Below, one piece after another: positions 2,865 to 45,885 of a stretch of DNA of 64,000 nt. Under the pieces are notes generated by a model. The model saw only the letters and a program-made list of their open reading frames with translations, did not search any database and was not told the origin of the DNA. Within the stretch, counting starts at the first letter, position 1. Each line of letters opens with the position of its first letter. The DNA lies in the NCBI GenBank assembly GCA_963756875.1, contig CAVWPA010000003.1, positions 160,001 through 224,000 of the forward strand, given 5' to 3'. A program made the position numbers and the translations under genes. The stretch is from an uncultured Verrucomicrobiae bacterium. GTDB lineage: Bacteria; Verrucomicrobiota; Verrucomicrobiia; Chthoniobacterales; UBA10450.

Positions 2865-3938
2865 TCACGCGACACGGCGTCGCGGCAGCGCGGATTGCAC
2901 CATCATCAGCTCGCTTACATGCTCGGGCGTGAGCAAACCGACCAACTTTTTCATGTTGTCCAGGACCGGCACGGCCGGGCAATTGCACTCCTGCATGATG
3001 CGGAACGCTTCTTCAAACCGCGTCCCGGTCGTCACCGTCGGAATATCGCGCCGCATCACGTCGCCGACGCGAACACTTGGATCGCCTTTCCGCAACGCGC
3101 CGATGAGATCGTGGCGAGTGAGCACGCCGGCAACGTCTCCTTTGTCATCCACTACGGGGAAATCGTGCTGTGAGGTAGCAAGCAGAACGTCCACAGCTTC
3201 CTGCAGTGTTGCGTTCACGGGAAGCGTGTGGAATTCGCGCACCATTGCGCTCGAGACCGGGAACCGGCGCGACATATCCCTCATTTGAGCGAGCGTCGCC
3301 TCCTGAGATGCACCGATATAAACGAAAAACGCGATGAAAATGAGGAACGGATTCCAAAGAAGCCCGATGAAGCCGAACAGGAACGCAAAAGCCTGCCCGA
3401 CGCTCGCCGCGACCTGCGTGGCGCGAGCATAACGCATTCGTGTCGCCAGAAGCGCGCGCAAGACGCGACCGCCGTCCATTGGAAAGGCCGGCAGCAGATT
3501 AAAAAGAAGCAGGATCACGTTCATGGTGAAGAGCACATCGAGGATGCCGGCTTGCATTGTGGTCGGATACGCCCACCGACCGCCTGCGATGAACGCAACG
3601 AGCGCAATGAGTGCGGTTACCGCCGGTCCCGCAGCGGCGATAATCAGTTCCTGCACCGGCTCTTCCGGAATTCGTTCCAAACGCGCCACGCCGCCTATTG
3701 GCAGCAACGTGATGTCCGGCGTGTTGATGCCAAAGGCTTTTCCCGCAAAGGCGTGTCCAAACTCATGCAACACGACACACGCGAACAGGAGGAGGATGAA
3801 CAACACTCCGCCGACCGCAGCCGGAGATCCCCCATGGGCATAGTAAACAAAGGCAACCCAGCCGACGAGAAGCAGAAACGTAAGATGCATCCGCAACTGG
3901 ATCCCTGCGATGCGGAAAATGGGGACCGACCAGCTCAT
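2865..3938 (-). CDS. Site-2 protease (M50) family zinc metalloprotease with C-terminal CBS pair
   Basis: HEFGH, FNLLPAFPMDGGR, CBS-like FPVVD...GVLTRHDL. Start reassigned to MSWSVPIFRIAG (ATG 3938). Confidence 0.93.
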   Translation of the reverse strand: MSWSVPIFRIAGIQLRMHLTFLLLVGWVAFVYYAHGGSPAAVGGVLFILLLFACVVLHEFGHAFAGKAFGINTPDITLLPIGGVARLERIPEEPVQELIIAAAGPAVTALIALVAFIAGGRWAYPTTMQAGILDVLFTMNVILLLFNLLPAFPMDGGRVLRALLATRMRYARATQVAASVGQAFAFLFGFIGLLWNPFLIFIAFFVYIGASQEATLAQMRDMSRRFPVSSAMVREFHTLPVNATLQEAVDVLLATSQHDFPVVDDKGDVAGVLTRHDLIGALRKGDPSVRVGDVMRRDIPTVTTGTRFEEAFRIMQECNCPAVPVLDNMKKLVGLLTPEHVSELMMVQSALPRRRVA

Positions 3939-36989: not shown

Positions 36990-38027
36990 TTAAATTGAAG
37001 CGCCTTTCCCAGAGGCTGGTGCTTTTGCGATCTCCATCTCGCGCGCTGCGGTTTGTCCTCCCAGCATCACCTCCAGGTTTGTCGCCGCTGTCTGTAATTC
37101 GAACTCTAAGTTAGACACCCGGGAAGTGAAAAAGTTAAATGGGATCAACGCGAAAATCGCAATGCCGAGACCGCACGCGGTAGCAATTAACGCCTCGGCA
37201 ATACCACCGGTGACCGCTGTCACGGCCAACTCTTCATTACCGAGGAAGCTGAAGGACCGAATCAAACCGGTGATCGTTCCCAACAAGCCGAGCAGAGGGG
37301 CCAGTGTGACCAGCGTGTCCATGACCACAAGAAAACGTCCCGCGCGCTTGATCTCGATACCTGCCGCGACCTGGAGCGCCCCTTGCAGTGAAGCGTGCTG
37401 GTGATTGAGGCCATTCCACATCATACGCAACACCGGATCTCGCGAATCCCTCGAGAGCCGTGAAGCTTCCGCCACATCGCCCATTTCAACCGCGGTGAAG
37501 ACTTTTTCGATCCGCTTCGGATCACGCCGAAACCAGCGCCCACCCCACCAGAAGATTCGTTCGATCACGACCGTCAGCGCGACGATCGATACAATCAGGA
37601 TGGGCCACATGATTGGGCCGCCCTTGTGAAACTTGTCGATAAGCCAGTTGCTACTGAAGACTCCGCCCGTTTCAGCAGGCGCTGCGGTCGGACTTGCGCT
37701 CGCCGCCGGGCTCAAGGTCGCGGTTACGCTGGCGCCAGGAGCGGTCGCACCTGGCGACATTCCCGGAACTGCGGGTGACATGCCGGCGGCTTCAGGCGAC
37801 ATCCCCGGAGCCGCGGGTGACATGCCGGCGGCAGGTGACATCCCCGGAGCTGCGGGTGACATGCCGGCGGCGGGTGATGCGACGGGCGCGCCTGGTTGCG
37901 CTGGCGCACCCGGTTGCGCCTGAGCGGCCGGCGCATTTGCAGACGGAGGTGGCGGCGCAGCCGGAGGCTGTTGCGCGACCGCAGTCGCCACGATCAAAGA
38001 GACACAGAGAGTAAGCAATGTTTTCAT
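36990..38027 (-). CDS. exbB: MotA/TolQ/ExbB protein with signal peptide and Ala/Pro repeat extension
   Basis: MKTLLTLCVSLIVATAVA, GMSP repeats, GGPIMWPI, LAPLLGLLGTITG, GIAEALIATA. Confidence 0.9.
   Translation of the reverse strand: MKTLLTLCVSLIVATAVAQQPPAAPPPPSANAPAAQAQPGAPAQPGAPVASPAAGMSPAAPGMSPAAGMSPAAPGMSPEAAGMSPAVPGMSPGATAPGASVTATLSPAASASPTAAPAETGGVFSSNWLIDKFHKGGPIMWPILIVSIVALTVVIERIFWWGGRWFRRDPKRIEKVFTAVEMGDVAEASRLSRDSRDPVLRMMWNGLNHQHASLQGALQVAAGIEIKRAGRFLVVMDTLVTLAPLLGLLGTITGLIRSFSFLGNEELAVTAVTGGIAEALIATACGLGIAIFALIPFNFFTSRVSNLEFELQTAATNLEVMLGGQTAAREMEIAKAPASGKGASI
37752..37878 (-). repeat. Coding tandem repeat (AAGMSP / AAPGMSP), 18- and 21-bp units
   Basis: Six GMSP units. GGTGACATGCCGG and GACATCCCCGGAGC recur in the DNA. 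Confidence 0.85.
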
Positions 38028-38240
38028 ATTAACGACTTGGATTATTTTACCTGCTCGGTAGTGAGATTCCTTATCCCAAATCAATTAGCGAGAAGTCGAG
38101 GAAACTTTTCACTTTTTTTTATAATACTTCATTTGCATGTAAATTCGAATTATTCACCCGGAATGGACGTAGGCAAGACGATGTAATTGGTCGGGCCACA
38201 CAAATCCCCAAGACGGCCGCGCATCGTTATCCGCGCGGCT

Positions 38241-39944: not shown

Positions 39945-41972
39945 TTACCGGGACTGGGTCTTCGCACTGTGCTTGTCGATCAAAGCTTGAAAGCGCGGAT
40001 CGCTTCGTAACGGGTCCCAAACCGGATTCACTTTAAGACTTGCCACGGTGACGTTGCTTGGCCGGCTCAACAGTCCGTCGAGAATCTCGATGGCCTGAGC
40101 GGTATCACCGAGAGCGGTATGCACTTCGGCGACGCCCTGTGTGATCTCGGGTCCCCCAAAGGCGTCCTTGCTTTCGGGGAGCAGTTCGGTGGCGCGCTGC
40201 GCCGCCTCCAGCGCGGCATCTTTTTCGCCGAGATATGCCAGCACTTTAGCAAGCTGAATCTCGGCGTCCGCAGCATCGGGGTTTTGCTTTAATTGCTGCT
40301 CGACCGCGCTCTTTGCCTTTAAGAAAGCCTCGCGCGAACCGGCGTCGTCATGGAGCGCTTTTCGGGCAAAGCCGATAAGATAATATTTGGTGGACAGACC
40401 CCCGGGAAAAGCCATGACCTGATCGTCCGGCAGGCTCTCCACCTTTTGCAATCCCTCCTTGTATTTGCGCTCCAGGAGATAAACATTCGCCCGGCCACCG
40501 GCGATCTTGAGCTTCTGCTCGTCACTCAGCACTGGGATCTTCTTCACCACCTCAAATCCTTGCTCAGCGACGCTCAAATCGCCTTTCTCCGCGACGGCCA
40601 GCTGGGATTTGATCTCCCAAAGTCCCACGCCGTTTGGATTCACCTTGAGCGCGCGATCGATCGTCTTGTTGGCCGCGTCGAATTGCCGCTGCATCTGATA
40701 GTTAAAAGCGAGATTCTGCAGCGGCCAGCTGTCTTTGGGATTCAAACTGGCCGCCTTCTCCAGATTGGCAGTCGATTCCGCCCATTTGCCCTGCCGGCGT
40801 TGGATCGCTCCGATGGCAAGATACGCGCCGGACTCGTTAGGCAGACCGCGCTGCGCGATTTCGAATTCCTTCAGGGCTGCATCGTAATCGTTGTCGCCGT
40901 AGTAATAAGAGAATCCCATCGCCAGGTGCGCCTCCGGCAGATCGGGCTGCAATTGCAGCGCCTGCTCGGCTAGCTTGCGAGCCTTTTCCTTGCGCTCGGG
41001 AACGGGGTCGATCGCGTGGAAAATCCAACTTTCCAATTGCGAGTAGCCCGCGATGGCCAGCGCAAATTTAGGGTCCAACTCGATGGCGCGCGCATAGAGC
41101 TCGCCGCTCTGTTTCAGTTTCGCGGGGTCCTCCATGGAGGTGGTAGAGAGATTGTGGGCCTGGACAAAAGCGAAATATGCTTCGCCGTTCTGGGTCGGTT
41201 TGCGCTCCATTTCTGCCTTCTCGCTGGGCGAAAGCTTTGCCTGCAGTTCGTTGGCGATTTCCTGGGCCAGCTTCGTCTGGATGGCGAAAACATCGGTCAA
41301 ATCACCGTCGTAATCGTTGGCCCAAAGATGTTCGTCTGTGGTGGCATCGATAAGCTGCACGTTGACGCGAACCTTGTTCCCCTCGCGACGCACGCTGCCC
41401 TCGAGAATGGTCGACACCCCGAGAGCCTTGCCGATGTCGCGAACATTCGGCAAATGACCCCGATACGACATCACCGATGTGCGGGAAATTACCTTGAGGT
41501 CGCCGATCTTCGACAGGTTTGTAAGAATGTCGTCCTGGATGCCGTCGGCAAAATAGGCGTTCTCTTTGTTGTCGCTCAAGTTTTCAAACGGAAGCACGGC
41601 GATCGATTTGTCGATCCTGTGTGCGGCCGCGCGCGGCAAAACAAAAAATCCCGCTGCTACGGAAATGGCAATACCGGCCGTCGCCAGCAAAACGATGTTG
41701 CGGCGGCGATGTCCGACCGGAGCGGGCAGCGACTCCATTTTCGACGTCCGCTCGATGCCGCTCGGAGTGATATCAAAAATCCAGGCGAGAACGAGGGCGA
41801 GCGGAAAACCGATCAATAAGAGCACGATGACCACCCGGATCACCGAGTTTGAAATGTCGAAAACAGGAAGAACCTGCGCCAGCCCTTGTGCCAGAGCCCA
41901 GCTCGCAACCGCATACGCGATCGCGACCCGGTAGACTTTGCGACGTTTCAATTCTTGGAAGAAGCCGGTCAT
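39945..41972 (-). CDS. Membrane protein with TolB-like/FlgO domain and TPR repeats (no catalytic domain)
   Basis: FFQELKRRKVYRVAIAY plus three hydrophobic segments, KSIAVLPFENLS, VISRTS, ILEGSVRR, TPR helices, WDPLRSDPRFQAL. Confidence 0.9.
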   Translation of the reverse strand: MTGFFQELKRRKVYRVAIAYAVASWALAQGLAQVLPVFDISNSVIRVVIVLLLIGFPLALVLAWIFDITPSGIERTSKMESLPAPVGHRRRNIVLLATAGIAISVAAGFFVLPRAAAHRIDKSIAVLPFENLSDNKENAYFADGIQDDILTNLSKIGDLKVISRTSVMSYRGHLPNVRDIGKALGVSTILEGSVRREGNKVRVNVQLIDATTDEHLWANDYDGDLTDVFAIQTKLAQEIANELQAKLSPSEKAEMERKPTQNGEAYFAFVQAHNLSTTSMEDPAKLKQSGELYARAIELDPKFALAIAGYSQLESWIFHAIDPVPERKEKARKLAEQALQLQPDLPEAHLAMGFSYYYGDNDYDAALKEFEIAQRGLPNESGAYLAIGAIQRRQGKWAESTANLEKAASLNPKDSWPLQNLAFNYQMQRQFDAANKTIDRALKVNPNGVGLWEIKSQLAVAEKGDLSVAEQGFEVVKKIPVLSDEQKLKIAGGRANVYLLERKYKEGLQKVESLPDDQVMAFPGGLSTKYYLIGFARKALHDDAGSREAFLKAKSAVEQQLKQNPDAADAEIQLAKVLAYLGEKDAALEAAQRATELLPESKDAFGGPEITQGVAEVHTALGDTAQAIEILDGLLSRPSNVTVASLKVNPVWDPLRSDPRFQALIDKHSAKTQSR

Positions 41973-42075: not shown

Positions 42076-42105
42076 TTGACATCGTATCAGCGCTCCGAGT
42101 ATCGT
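42076..42105 (+). promoter_or_regulatory. Sigma70-type promoter of the peptide/oxidase operon
   Basis: TTGACA-N18-TATCGT, followed by RBS AAGGAG 5 nt before ATG 42139. Confidence 0.65.
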
Positions 42106-42138
42106 CTGAATTGCCTACTCAAACGAAAAGGAGCAACA

Positions 42139-42306
42139 ATGACTAAAAAGGAATCGGCAAAAGCGAAACGCGATATGCAGCTGCGGAAAAAAAAGGCGGC
42201 GGCCCTGGTCAGAAGTCTCAAAAAGACCGAACAAAAATTGGAATTGGATTTAAAGAAGCTCAAGGAAGGTCTCTCCAGCCCGGTACTTTACTATCACCGC
42301 TTGTGA
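42139..42306 (+). CDS. Putative RiPP precursor peptide (55 aa)
   Basis: Strong RBS. MTKKESAKAKRDMQLRKKKAAALVRSLKKTEQKLELDLKKLKEGLSSPVLYYHRL. Stop overlaps the next start (TGATG). Confidence 0.75.
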   Translation: MTKKESAKAKRDMQLRKKKAAALVRSLKKTEQKLELDLKKLKEGLSSPVLYYHRL

Positions 42307-43442
42307 TGCGGGAAGGGGCGGGCCCATTTCGACGGGCTAAAAGTTTGTCGGTCTGCTGGCGGGACGGTCGACTTCTTTTTCATAATTACGCCGCGCAATC
42401 GACCATTTCTGCCAGGCCCGTCACCTGCGAAGTTCTGAATTTCTTCAGCCACTGGCGCACTGTCAGAGCAGCTGTCACCCATTTTTCTGCTTACTCGAAG
42501 CAAAGCGTGGTGGCCGCTCTCGCCGACTTACTAAAGCGGGGGCTTCTCGTTGCGAAAGGTTCCCCGGAGGCGGCGCGCGACTCTTTGGTTGCAAGGGAGT
42601 GGTCCTCTTGGTTGCCCGAAGGGAGTTTTCATTTCTCGACGAAGGACGCGCCCTATGTGCGTGGCGATCGGAGCAACGCTCGTTTGGCGCCTTTTCTTTT
42701 GAAGACGCCGCAGCCTGCACATTTTAAGGTGATCAGCGAGGCGAGGAGAGTTGCGCTTCCACCGCGTATTTTTCCGGACTGCGAATTCATTCGAGTTCTG
42801 ATGGCGAGACGGACCCATCGACGGTTCTCATCCAAACCGCTTACCCTTGAAAGCGTATCTCAACTGCTCTCACTGGTTTGGGGCTTCACCGGTTATCTGC
42901 ACTCTCCTCTCTTTGGAAAGTTACCGGCCAAGACCAGCCCGTCGGGTGGCGCGCGGCATCCCGGGGAGGTGTACCTGATGGCCCTGCGTGTCCAAGGCCT
43001 GAGACCCGGTCTGTATCATTATCACCCCGCTCACCATCGCCTTGAGAGGATCCATTCCCACGCGACGCGTGGCGAAGCGTCACGCTACTGCGCGTACCAG
43101 GACTACGTAAAAAACGCCGGTGCTCTGTTCTTAATGACGGCCGTGTTTGGACGCACCATGTGGAAATACAGGCATGCTCGCGCCTACCGCGTCGTGTTGC
43201 TCGAAGCTGGCCACCTATGCCAGACATTTTGTCTGGCCGCGACTTGGCTGGGGCTCGCGCCGTTCTGCACCGCCGCGCTCAAGGACACGTTGATCGAGAA
43301 AGATCTCGGAATCGACGGAGTCCGCGAATCGATACTTTACGTAGCTGGCGTTGGCCTGCCCTCTACTTCGGAGCGAGTGAAGCGACAATTTTCTCGAACC
43401 GGGGATCACCGCGCAATGAATCCCAATAGGGGTGAAGCTTGA
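42306..43442 (+). CDS. SagB/ThcOx-family FMN-dependent peptide dehydrogenase with RRE-like N-terminus
   Basis: RRTHRRF, KTSPSGGARHPGEVY, GLYHY, WKY, AYRVVLLEAGHLCQTFCLAATWLGL. The first ~80 aa show a beta3/alpha3 pattern ending LADLLKRGLLV. Confidence 0.88.
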   Translation: MREGAGPFRRAKSLSVCWRDGRLLFHNYAAQSTISARPVTCEVLNFFSHWRTVRAAVTHFSAYSKQSVVAALADLLKRGLLVAKGSPEAARDSLVAREWSSWLPEGSFHFSTKDAPYVRGDRSNARLAPFLLKTPQPAHFKVISEARRVALPPRIFPDCEFIRVLMARRTHRRFSSKPLTLESVSQLLSLVWGFTGYLHSPLFGKLPAKTSPSGGARHPGEVYLMALRVQGLRPGLYHYHPAHHRLERIHSHATRGEASRYCAYQDYVKNAGALFLMTAVFGRTMWKYRHARAYRVVLLEAGHLCQTFCLAATWLGLAPFCTAALKDTLIEKDLGIDGVRESILYVAGVGLPSTSERVKRQFSRTGDHRAMNPNRGEA

Positions 43443-45780
43443 GAAGACCGTAGCTAAGCTCGTTAGGGACGCGCTCTACCTCGGCAATCTGTTCGATAGC
43501 CAGGTCTTTTTCGCCGGTCCAGGCGTAAATCTGCGCCAGGTCGACAGCGAGTGCGGCACCGTCGACCGCATCCTTTGATATTGGGAGTAGTTCCCAAGCA
43601 CGTCGGCCCTCACGCAGCGCATCTTCCTTGCGTCCGAGTCCAGCGTCGATCCTGCCCAATAGACTTACCGCCGGCGCAAAATCGGGCTGGTCGTCGATCT
43701 CTTTCTGCACCTCTTTGCGGGCGGCAGCAAAAGCAGCGCGGGCGTTAGCAATGTCCCCTTGGCAATAAGCAAACACTCCCTCCCAGTAAGCCACAGGAAT
43801 TCTGGCACCGTAGGGAGCCAAGCCACCGGGCGGGTAATCTTTAAACACACGGCTGGCAGCAGCCGCGCTTCGTTCACAAAGGCCGTAGTCTGGGTAGTCG
43901 ATATCTCTCGCGACGGCTGGATTTTCAATAATCAAAGCAGCCAGCGTCTTCTTATACGGTTCAATATCCGCCCGCCAATGGAGAGCAACCAGCGCTCGAT
44001 TGACACGGGTCAGCGGATCGCCAGGGGCAATATTCAGTACGCGGTCCCAAGTTTGCGCCTCATCAGCGTAGCGACGCTCCGAATGGTAGGTCAGTGCCAG
44101 TTGTTGAAGGATAAACCGATTGCGCGGGTCCAGCTCGAGGGCGTGCTCCAGATTGCGGGTGGCTTCCGTCCAATCGCCTTCACGACGATCGATCAGGCCG
44201 GTATATAGAAAAACCTCTGCGTTGTTCGGCAGCGTATGCCGCGCAGTTGCCAGATCAGCGCGCGCGCGCTGATAGTCGCGGAAGCCTTGGTAGTAATAAA
44301 TTCCGAGTGCGAGGTTTACTTCACCCCCTTGGGGTTGCAGCTGCGAGGCAGTTTGTAGCGCCGCCTTGGCCAGATCAAGACGTGACTTGGTATGGTCCTC
44401 GTGCGTATAGATGGCACCCTGCGTTCGCGACAGCAGGCACCAAGCCAAAAGAAAACGCGGGTCGCTCTGAACAGCCTCGTTAAGCAGGCGCGCAGCCTCA
44501 AACAAGTTCTCCCTGCCGTGCATTGGATCTGAAACGTTTCCCCAGTGCGCCTTAGCCTCCTGGTATAGCCTGAACGCGATGAGGTTGGTAGTTGGGGGCT
44601 TCTCGATCGCGGCCTTTTCGCTCGGAGAGATTTTTGCCTGGAGTTGGTCGGCGATCGCTTTCGCAATCTCGCTCTGGATCTTAAAGACGTCCGCCAGTTC
44701 GCGATCATACCCCTGCGCCCAGATATGCGTGTCTGTTCGGGCGTCGATCAACTGTGCGGTAACGCGGATCCGGTTCCCCTCACGCTGCACGCTCCCTTCC
44801 AACACATGGGCTACCCCGAGCTGCTTGGCAATCTCGCGCACATTGCGCTCCGCGCCGCCTTTGTACTGCATTACGCTGGTCCGGCTAATGACCTTTAGGT
44901 CAGCGATTTTCGCCAGGTCCATGAGAATTTCGTCCTGGACACCTTCAGTGAAGAATGCGTTTTCCGGTTGTGCGCTTAGGTTCTCGAAAGGAAGCACCGC
45001 GATGCTCTTTTCCGGAGCGATCACGCGAGCTGTTCGCCCTGAACGTCCGCGTTGGACGAAGATCCAAATGCTGGTCGCCAGCGCGATCGCCGAAAGAAAC
45101 ATGGTCAGCGCCAATAACGATTTTGACCAGCGTGGAGCCGCTGCCGACCGCATGAGACGCGCGTCGGCGTGCTTCCAGCGCTTGCCGCGACGGAATTTTT
45201 CCGGTGGCTGCGGATTACCCAGATCGCTCTTTGAAAAATTGAAGATGTGAAGCCTTAGTCCGTGCTTAACCTCGCACTCGCCAAGGTCGTGCAGATAGGG
45301 CCGCCAATGCCCGTATTGCGCCAAATCGTCGGCCACGTGCTTCGAGAGCAGAATGTGCCCGGCATCGCCGCATTCCATCACCCGCTGGGCGACATTTATG
45401 CCCGTTCCGGTAATGTTGGATCGGTCGTTCACATCGGTAACCTCATTCACCGGGCCGCTGTGAATTCCCATGCGCAACTGGATTTGAGGATGGCTGCGCA
45501 ATTCCTCGGCAATCTCTAGCGCACATTGCACCGGCTCCTCCGGACTATGGAAGAAAAGCAGCGCCATTCCATCGCCGGTAGGCAGACGAATCAGCTTTCG
45601 GCTGGCTTCAGCCCGCCGGAAACATTCGGTGTTTCGAACGATTTGATTAAGCTGCTGGAGCAGTTCGGCCTGTTCGTTGCCCAGCAGCTTGGAATAGCCG
45701 ACAACGTCCATTAACAAAATGTGCGCGATCTCGAATCCGAGATCCGGCTTCTGCCCAGCGGATATGTTTTGCTCGGGCAC
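43363..45780 (-). CDS. Class III adenylate/guanylate cyclase domain + TM + TolB-like + TPR protein
   Basis: LMDVVGYS, PTGDGMAL, LRMGIHSGPV, GINVAQRV, then TM, KSIAVLPFENLS, TPRs, WDSLRGDPRFEKIV. GTG start with AGGAGG RBS. Confidence 0.9.
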   Translation of the reverse strand: MPEQNISAGQKPDLGFEIAHILLMDVVGYSKLLGNEQAELLQQLNQIVRNTECFRRAEASRKLIRLPTGDGMALLFFHSPEEPVQCALEIAEELRSHPQIQLRMGIHSGPVNEVTDVNDRSNITGTGINVAQRVMECGDAGHILLSKHVADDLAQYGHWRPYLHDLGECEVKHGLRLHIFNFSKSDLGNPQPPEKFRRGKRWKHADARLMRSAAAPRWSKSLLALTMFLSAIALATSIWIFVQRGRSGRTARVIAPEKSIAVLPFENLSAQPENAFFTEGVQDEILMDLAKIADLKVISRTSVMQYKGGAERNVREIAKQLGVAHVLEGSVQREGNRIRVTAQLIDARTDTHIWAQGYDRELADVFKIQSEIAKAIADQLQAKISPSEKAAIEKPPTTNLIAFRLYQEAKAHWGNVSDPMHGRENLFEAARLLNEAVQSDPRFLLAWCLLSRTQGAIYTHEDHTKSRLDLAKAALQTASQLQPQGGEVNLALGIYYYQGFRDYQRARADLATARHTLPNNAEVFLYTGLIDRREGDWTEATRNLEHALELDPRNRFILQQLALTYHSERRYADEAQTWDRVLNIAPGDPLTRVNRALVALHWRADIEPYKKTLAALIIENPAVARDIDYPDYGLCERSAAAASRVFKDYPPGGLAPYGARIPVAYWEGVFAYCQGDIANARAAFAAARKEVQKEIDDQPDFAPAVSLLGRIDAGLGRKEDALREGRRAWELLPISKDAVDGAALAVDLAQIYAWTGEKDLAIEQIAEVERVPNELSYGLLKLHPYWDSLRGDPRFEKIVASLAPK

Positions 45781-45885
45781 GGGCCTCCTTTGCAAGGCCG
45801 ATGATCTCAATTCTTCCGGCCTGGGGTCGAGCTAAAACGACGAGCGAAGCGCGGGGCGCCGCCCGCGCGACCAGGAAGTAGGAGC

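Follow-up and report, generated by a model that had tools for sequence, protein, structure and literature searches.

SagB-type flavoenzymes are classically known as oxidases of azolines that need YcaO as a partner, and the Lys-Tyr motif of these dehydrogenases is catalytic, as known from the literature on McbC and BcerB. For YcaO-independent chemistry by the nitroreductase fold on ribosomal peptides two partial precedents were found, both 2025 preprints. The nitroreductase domain of PflD converts Phe to Z-dehydroPhe, with a mass change of −2 Da, in a peptide of the ribosomally synthesized, post-translationally modified kind (RiPP) that is made without YcaO; its authors call YcaO-less RiPP nitroreductases rare and functionally uncharacterized, and suggest that others of them make other dehydro-amino acids (PMC12636437, available part). 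TfxB and TfxC, dehydrogenases with flavin mononucleotide (FMN) that bear a RiPP recognition element (RRE), are proposed to build the fluorophore of trifolitoxin (bioRxiv 10.64898/2025.12.02.691738, available part). The locus described here lies at positions 42,076 to 43,442 of a 64,000-nucleotide stretch of contig CAVWPA010000003.1 (assembly GCA_963756875.1) of an uncultured Verrucomicrobiae bacterium. The whole stretch is called the window. The locus is a cassette of a gene for a 55-aa precursor-like peptide and a gene for an RRE-SagB enzyme, and membrane sensors adjoin it. The reading of the cassette put forward here, with a probability of roughly 0.6, is that the peptide is the substrate of the neighboring enzyme, that the reaction is independent of YcaO, and that the sensors and the pair are linked. 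The cassette is probably an undescribed peptide-modification system of common soil bacteria, in which the enzyme works without a ring-forming partner and beside membrane sensors.

The peptide gene is conserved upstream of the enzyme gene

The peptide gene (42139..42306, + strand) was identified as an open reading frame (ORF) and by a family profile. It starts with the ATG at 42139 and encodes 55 residues, MTKKES...SSPVLYYHRL. According to the alignment of the peptide family, residues 1–45 (42139–42273, +) are a Lys-rich helical leader with the motif KLELDLKKLK. The translation of 42274–42303 (+) gives the tail SSPVLYYHRL, residues 46–55. The TGA stop codon at 42304–42306 overlaps by one base with the ATG at 42306 of the enzyme gene (42306..43442, +), the 378-aa product of which is a SagB-family FMN dehydrogenase according to Pfam, NCBIfam, alignment, and Foldseek. 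Direct reading shows a ribosome-binding site, AAGGAG (42128..42133, +), 5 nt 5' of the ATG of the peptide gene, and a promoter-like site (42076..42105, +) composed of TTGACA (42076–42081), an 18-nt spacer, and TATCGT (42100–42105). The promoter-like site has 10 of 12 matches, and it occurs once in the real sequence compared to 0.6 ± 0.8 times expected from shuffles. It was rejected as a signal by itself because the count is not above chance. All four elements that an earlier note on this DNA had read from the sequence, namely the promoter-like site, the ribosome-binding site, the 55-codon ORF, and the TGATG overlap, are present at the places given there.

Related loci were collected from species genomes (45) and metagenomes (80), and an upstream ORF was counted as a candidate if it was 30–110 aa long, started with ATG, and ended between −170 and +45 nt from the enzyme start. 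A candidate is present in 101 of the 106 sources that contain the enzyme N-terminus plus upstream DNA, and a jackhmmer search seeded with the window peptide gathers the upstream ORF in 78 of the 101. When the window and its duplicate (L001) are left out, 76 of the 99 remaining loci have a peptide-family ORF upstream of the enzyme gene. These are the small ORFs upstream of homologous oxidases for which the earlier note had suggested looking; they encode 40–70 aa and have aromatic/His tails. Eight of 3,352 decoy ORFs taken from these loci match the peptide profile, and by eye all eight are extra paralogous peptide genes. The only match to the profile among 51,589 stop-to-stop ORFs of the bacterium's own genome is the window ORF, and neither a second peptide gene nor a second copy of the enzyme was found in this genome. 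The window ORF is thus far above chance, because it is the sole match in its own genome and has counterparts in the 76 related loci. The peptide belongs to a real conserved family.

The alignment of 52 peptides, hand-picked from 75 listed ones, shows a Lys-rich N-terminus (MPKKK, MPNN, or MAKKK) and a helical stretch that ends in K-L-x-L-x-L-K-K-[VL]-K-x-x-L, with a nearly invariant L38. The short tails diverge sharply even where the enzymes are more than 65% identical, and examples of tails are YYHRL in the window and LVFHTR, DPHHL, DNHHHL, MPFMPFRF, EEWYFGI, and NHIPHCP elsewhere. The content of Phe, Tyr, Trp, and His is 19.8% in the tails compared to 3.4% in the leaders, each of the 52 tails has at least one of these residues, and His is the commonest tail residue (9.4%). 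Six tails contain Cys, and 12 contain no Cys, Ser, or Thr. The C-terminal YYH motif, which the earlier note had singled out as a possible site of modification, is not conserved; what the family keeps in the tail is a richness in aromatic residues and His. A subgroup of five loci (L016, L019, L071, L085, and L100) has G-x-L-G tails and escapes the peptide profile.

Some tails contain repeated motifs, such as IPY four times, GHPH three times, and GH-x-F three times. Two to four tandem copies of the motifs IPY, GHPH, GH-x-F-x-GKG, PMGVLGKG, MPFG, or NVPF are present in the tails of L096, L125, L122, L085, L010, and L101, and are reminiscent of multi-core precursors. Extra paralogous peptide genes occur near the enzyme gene in L017, L020, and L022 (at about 3350–3500), as well as in L013, L055, L056, L091, L107, and L109; therefore, some loci encode two precursors. 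L017, L020, and L022 have a second tandem peptide; an example of an extra peptide is MPKKKARKRT...SDPHHFV, encoded upstream of the first one.

The enzyme has a SagB-type catalytic domain and an RRE-type N-terminal domain

The catalytic part of the enzyme is a nitroreductase domain that spans residues 166–350 (42801–43355, +; Pfam PF00881, E-value 2.8e-17). Residues 180–350 score 120.6 bits against the SagB-family model TIGR03605, above its cut-off of 78.4, which confirms the earlier assignment to a nitroreductase-fold enzyme with SagB/ThcOx motifs. The motifs KTSPSGGARHP, WKY, and LLEAGHLCQ, which the earlier note had pointed out, are present in the translation. The top NCBIfam match of the enzyme is TIGR04511, with 185.1 bits over residues 65–353, below the curated cut-off of 240. 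The WKY motif (residues 286–288; 43161–43169, +) was located by alignment. W286, K287, and Y288 are nearly invariant among 25 aligned homologs, as are the motifs RRTHRRF, KTSPSGGA, and AGH, and WKY aligns with the WKY of ThcOx and the FKY of McbC. The top structural match of the whole enzyme in Foldseek is ThcOx, with an E-value of 1.5e-16 over 368 columns, followed by BmdC, McbC, and ordinary nitroreductases.

The enzyme family comprises at least 4,470 protein clusters and occurs in at least 574 metagenome stretches. The genome records that match the enzyme best are those of Candidatus Udaeobacter, which is uncultured and among the most abundant soil bacteria. No longer fused homologs (663–2000 aa) were found at E-values up to 1e-20, which is weak evidence by the search's own grading. 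Shorter homologs (354–356 aa) lack the C-terminal extension of the enzyme. The enzyme frame is interrupted or shifted in some bins, with five stops in the reference of L024 and loss of frame in L031 and L033; these breaks could be assembly errors or pseudogenes.

Residues 1–100 of the enzyme (42306..42605, +) are predicted to form a winged-helix domain of the RRE type, as judged from an AlphaFold2 model and its alignment by VIA-align. Residues 1–110 were folded alone using 30 sequences, and the resulting model has a predicted local distance difference test (pLDDT) score of 89.3. Strands at residues 8–10, 14–19, 22–27, and 32–36 are followed by helices at 39–46, 53–59, and 65–77; thus the model has the three-stranded sheet and three subsequent helices that resemble known RREs. 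VIA-align matched the domain to TigE with a Z-score of 11.1 (root mean square deviation 3.6 Å, 100 aligned residues), MibB (10.2), MccB (9.0), NisB (8.8), residues 108–220 of ThcOx (8.3), TbtB (8.2), the RRE of PbtF (7.8), TbiB1 (7.0), and PqqD (5.6). Among the 27 rows with Z-scores of 6.4 or higher, 25 were assigned, from their titles, to peptide-maturation proteins with a leader-binding domain. Foldseek returned nothing at E-values up to 0.001 for the isolated domain (best 1.1e-3), and its list names the same set of proteins as VIA-align. The assignment of an RRE-type fold is supported by the model, and it is based on the second look by VIA-align and the coherent list of matches, since the Foldseek E-values are weak. 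The proposal of the earlier note that the N-terminus is RRE-like therefore holds for the predicted fold and fails for the sequence profile.

The strictly conserved motif W99-x-x-W102-x-P104...H109-F110-x-T-K-D114 (enzyme residues 99–114; 42600–42650) is located between the RRE-type and nitroreductase domains, in a stretch that was modeled with low confidence.

A YcaO partner was not found

No YcaO (PF02624) was detected in the 2.69-Mb genome of the bacterium, which is 87.6% complete, by a search that was positive in five control genomes. The earlier note had named a YcaO encoded elsewhere in the genome as a possible source of ordinary oxazoles; this search, the related genomes, and the composition of the tails make an azole route through a distant YcaO an unlikely explanation. 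Among 41 genomes of the same family or order, the enzyme is present in four (87.6, 99, 72, and 95% complete) and YcaO in two others, and no genome has both. The absence of YcaO, protease, and exporter genes that had been noted in the window holds within about 5 kb of the cassette. The 44 flanking ORFs of the 19 related loci that were scanned with Pfam show no recurring YcaO, E1-like gene, protease, or exporter.

Members of the thiazole/oxazole-modified microcins (TOMMs) have a YcaO partner in the cluster or genome and a core rich in Cys, Ser, and Thr. A YcaO partner was found neither in the own genome nor in the other three enzyme-bearing genomes or among the flanking ORFs of the 19 loci, and the tails do not have such cores. 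Because no YcaO was found and tails free of Cys, Ser, and Thr exist, ordinary azole formation is unlikely as the shared function of the family. The enzyme family evidently needs no YcaO and acts on tails that are poor in Cys and rich in aromatic residues.

Membrane sensors adjoin the cassette

Two genes on the opposite strand flank the cassette in the window, and their products are paralogous sensors with 37% identity over 587 residues. The first sensor (39945..41972, −; Pfam, NCBIfam, and hydropathy) has transmembrane segments, a FlgO/TolB_N-like module (IAVLPFENLS...), TPR repeats, and TPR_END. Its hydropathy peaks are at residues 47–65 and 93–111, and it has no recognized output domain, so that it is a headless paralog. 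It scores 54.6 bits against the NCBIfam model TPR_END_plus (cut-off 32), matches the TolB N-terminal region, and reaches 45.8 bits against TIGR04510 (cut-off 400). The second sensor (43363..45810, −; the same methods) is of the cyclase type, with a class III cyclase head, one transmembrane segment (residues 232–250), a FlgO/TolB_N-like module, TPR repeats, and TPR_END. Pfam identifies Guanylate_cyc (26.7 bits, cut-off 21.9) and TPR families in it, and its score against TIGR04510 is 37.2 bits. The enzyme gene (+) and the gene of the cyclase-type sensor (−) converge and share 80 nt at their 3' ends (43363–43442), and an overlap of about 80 nt is also present in the ORF tables of loci L012, L013, and L014.

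A TPR receptor adjoins the cassette in all 19 related loci scanned with Pfam. The cytoplasmic heads of these receptors are Ser/Thr kinases in 12 loci, cyclases in four, and an OmpR/CadC-type DNA-binding domain (Trans_reg_C) in one, and no head was detected in two. Because the heads vary, it is the sensor module and not the output domain that is conserved beside the pair. The N-terminal module of the sensor was detected by tblastn in 34 of the 39 loci with at least 2.5 kb of sequence on both sides, and two of the five missed loci, L021 and L039, have a kinase-TPR neighbor according to Pfam. In 17 of 18 cases head and sensor are separated by one hydrophobic segment; therefore, the conserved sensor module is predicted from hydropathy to be extracytoplasmic. 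The sensor gene is convergent and downstream in Udaeobacter-type loci; in Acidobacteriota, Limnocylindrales, and a gammaproteobacterial bin it lies upstream and reads in the same direction. The membrane sensor is a conserved third component of the cassette, and the description of the locus in the earlier note as a two-gene unit has to be extended accordingly.

The bacterium's own genome has sensor paralogs at only five places, and the cassette lies between two of these genes. By eye, no peptide-plus-enzyme cassette is present at the other four places. At one of them (G000:C3:1407731-1411561) a cyclase-type sensor is followed in tandem by a headless paralog (N-terminus ...ELKRRKVYSVAIAYAVGAWALAQ); these are the same two kinds of sensor that flank the cassette, with no peptide or enzyme gene between them. 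The sensor that adjoins the cassette in L016, the only scanned locus of the subgroup with G-x-L-G tails, is of the kinase type.

Elsewhere in the window, a protein of the MotA/TolQ/ExbB family (36990–38084, −) has a long Pro/Ala-rich N-terminal region with PGMSPAA-like repeat units. No RNA datasets that contain the stretch are listed, and two soil DNA runs from one study contain part of it.

Proposed mechanism and alternative explanations

It is quite likely that the small peptide is the substrate of the enzyme. The N-terminal RRE-type domain would grip the Lys-rich helical leader, the core of which is K-L-x-L-x-L-K-K-[LV]-K, and the SagB-type FMN domain with its Lys-Tyr pair would oxidize at least one residue in the hypervariable aromatic/His-rich tail, here SSPVLYYHRL, with no YcaO cyclodehydratase involved. 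The likeliest reaction would be a two-electron α,β-dehydrogenation that gives dehydro-Tyr, -Phe, -His, or -Trp, and possibly acts on Leu in some relatives. The desaturation of aromatic residues has a precedent, because PflD makes Z-dehydroPhe without YcaO (PMC12636437, available part), and the proposal that the enzyme studied here dehydrogenates an aromatic residue is tentative. The pair may work with the adjoining membrane proteins, whose extracytoplasmic module would stay constant, with a kinase, a cyclase, a DNA-binding domain, or nothing as the exchangeable cytoplasmic head. The product could be a signal that is detected by the sensors or an output under their control, and a ligand-receptor relation between the modified peptide and the sensors is rather doubtful.

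A complex of the enzyme dimer, two FMN molecules, and the peptide was predicted with a score of 0.41, whereas the best of three controls scored 0.00. Of the complexes with a solved structure, 116 of 157 attained the mark for such scores, as did two of 215 mismatched pairs; at scores up to 0.60 it was attained by only 18 of those 157 complexes and by both of the mismatched pairs that passed. At least 52% of the contacts agree between the runs, and the pLDDT of the partner is at least 49. The prediction weakly favors the pairing of enzyme and peptide.

Several observations weigh against the reading of the peptide as the substrate of an enzyme that works without YcaO and is linked to the sensors. 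One of the three runs of the complex prediction scored only 0.11, and the prediction returned no interface. The model of the full-length enzyme monomer is mediocre, with a pLDDT of 67.6 and values below 50 around the WKY loop. A PqqD match (Pfam accession presumably PF05402) is missing from the N-terminus at E-values up to 1, and the only Pfam matches there at this threshold are MarR_2, which is weak (0.0046), and DUF4381; many bona fide RREs also escape the PqqD profile. Partial Mantel tests on 55 loci gave a correlation of 0.12 (p about 0.035) between leader and RRE when the catalytic domain was controlled for, and of 0.10 (p about 0.06) between leader and catalytic domain when the RRE was controlled for, so that the two covariations are not separated. 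The cassette has no exporter or leader protease according to Pfam in the 19 loci and within about 5 kb in the window, and a cytoplasmic product would have to reach a sensor that is predicted to face outwards. As the own genome is 87.6% complete, a YcaO could be encoded in the missing part. Finally, 23 of the 101 sources with a candidate ORF escape the peptide profile, and by eye most of these loci still have a Lys-rich small ORF at the same place. The five peptides of the G-x-L-G subgroup are nearly pure Lys/Arg/Gly and lack the helical leader. Three of them (L019, L085, and L100) have no aromatic residue in the tail, only the G-x-L-G motif; thus aromatic specificity is not universal.

Part of the same evidence is compatible with an unlikely alternative, in which the enzyme acts on a small molecule or another protein, and the Lys-rich helical protein is a regulator, chaperone, or adaptor that, for example, presents its C-terminal tail to the TPR groove of the sensors. 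TPR domains commonly bind C-terminal peptide tails, and the weak complex prediction (score 0.41), the lack of a linked protease or exporter, and the similar covariation of the leader with the RRE (r 0.12) and with the catalytic domain (r 0.10) fit this alternative as well. However, the RRE-type domains of SagB-type oxidases are known leader binders, as illustrated by ThcOx and the VIA-align matches, and precursors usually combine a conserved leader with a tail that is hypervariable and in some cases repeated. The stop/start overlap in the window and the tight linkage in 76 of 99 loci also speak for a precursor, and hydropathy places the TPR module outside the membrane, whereas the peptide has no signal sequence.

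The His-rich tails (DPHHL, or GHPH three times) might instead bind metal, so that the peptide would be a chelator or chaperone controlled by the sensors. No residue is more frequent in the tails than His, some tails repeat GHPH or SHGAG motifs, and MNIO-modified bufferins are a precedent for copper-binding RiPPs (PMC12452194, available part). Nevertheless, this role is improbable: many tails, such as LKMPFMPFRF and KKLKDDFYFGI, contain no His and only Phe, Tyr, or Trp, the window tail has a single His, and Pfam shows no gene for metal transport or metal sensing beside the cassette in the 19 loci and within about 5 kb in the window. It is most improbable that the cassette is an ordinary TOMM, in which the Ser residues of the tail are turned into oxazolines by a YcaO that is encoded elsewhere or missing from the assembly, and the enzyme then oxidizes these. 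In its favor, the enzyme bears every SagB hallmark including the Lys-Tyr pair, the window tail has two Ser, and the own genome is incomplete (87.6%). Against it, YcaO was not found in any of the four enzyme-bearing genomes, of which one is 99% complete; Cys, Ser, and Thr are all missing from 12 of 52 tails, and Cys is present in only six; and the 44 flanking ORFs of the related loci include no YcaO or E1-like gene according to Pfam.

Implications

The reading of the cassette as a peptide substrate with its own RRE-SagB enzyme can be tested directly in Escherichia coli, as the cassette is tiny and comprises one peptide and one enzyme. TolB_N/TPR sensors are not known to have an identified ligand, and the cassette, which is coupled to such membrane sensors tightly and in an evolutionarily flexible way, provides a candidate for their ligand or output. 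A more far-reaching and rather unlikely possibility is a peptide signaling system, in which the lone RRE-SagB enzyme converts an aromatic or His residue of the tail into a dehydro-amino acid, and the modified peptide is the cognate ligand of the adjoining receptors, which relay it through interchangeable heads. Such a system would be hosted by Udaeobacter-type Verrucomicrobiota, Acidobacteriota, Gemmatimonadota, and others. If this were true, a very large family of orphan sensors would gain a ligand, and these phyla a pherotype-like communication code.

Comparison with known systems

The cyanobactin oxidase ThcOx/CyaGox (PDB 5lq4 and 8pz5) is the best structural match of the whole enzyme and shares with it the order of an RRE-type domain and then a nitroreductase domain of the SagB kind, as well as the WKY motif. 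In contrast to the window enzyme, to which its sequence identity is about 18%, ThcOx oxidizes thiazolines made by a YcaO heterocyclase, whereas no YcaO was found here and a good number of the tails contain none of Cys, Ser, and Thr. The TOMM dehydrogenases McbC, SagB, and BcerB belong to the family defined by TIGR03605, the cut-off of which the window enzyme exceeds, and the Lys-Tyr pair of the enzyme aligns with the FKY of McbC. However, they work in a complex with a YcaO cyclodehydratase on cores rich in Cys, Ser, and Thr, a context that was not found for the cassette.

The cyclodipeptide oxidase AlbA/AlbB shares the nitroreductase fold and dehydrogenates the Cα-Cβ bond of Phe and Leu side chains. 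Its Foldseek match to the enzyme is weak (8uc3, E-value 6.9e-3), far weaker than that of ThcOx. Unlike the window enzyme, AlbA/AlbB acts on diketopiperazines, forms filaments, and has no RRE; general Pfam scans of the neighboring genes, with no dedicated search made, showed neither an AlbB-like partner nor a diketopiperazine synthase. PflD is also a nitroreductase-fold enzyme that acts on a ribosomal peptide without YcaO, but it is fused to an MNIO and is encoded in a Pseudomonas cluster together with a HEXXH enzyme, a GNAT protein, and transporters; it is likened to the window enzyme by description and not by sequence (PMC12636437, available part). TfxB and TfxC of trifolitoxin and the tiarins are of the SagB kind, are proposed to perform a leader-dependent modification other than azole oxidation, and have precursors encoded directly upstream behind a strong ribosome-binding site. 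Differences are that the TfxB-TfxC pair is needed, and that the tiarins have a conserved Gln, exporters, and often aminoacyl-tRNA synthetase immunity genes, according to the available part of the preprint; none of these was found at the cassette.

The arrangement that resembles the cassette most in its logic is a trio of NCBIfam models, TIGR04509 (putative modified peptide), TIGR04510 (putative peptide modification system cyclase), and TIGR04511 (SagB-related putative peptide maturation dehydrogenase). The sensors match TIGR04510 over the sensor region with 28–46 bits, and TIGR04511 is the top match of the enzyme. Three of five related sensors that were scanned score 28–40 bits against TIGR04510, and that of L012 does not match at E-values up to 0.001. 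All curated cut-offs are missed (185 versus 240 for the enzyme, and at most 46 versus 400 for the sensors), and none of the 52 peptides matches TIGR04509 at E-values up to 1. A literature search with little coverage of subscription journals returned no paper that names TIGR04509–11 or describes the cassette. Another difference lies in the head of the sensor, which is not always a cyclase; often a kinase or a DNA-binding domain takes its place, or no head is present. The statement in the earlier note that this type of system was not recognized as described therefore needs qualification, as a related, uncharacterized trio exists, and the locus, although below the cut-offs, shares with it a three-part logic of peptide, sensor, and SagB-related dehydrogenase.

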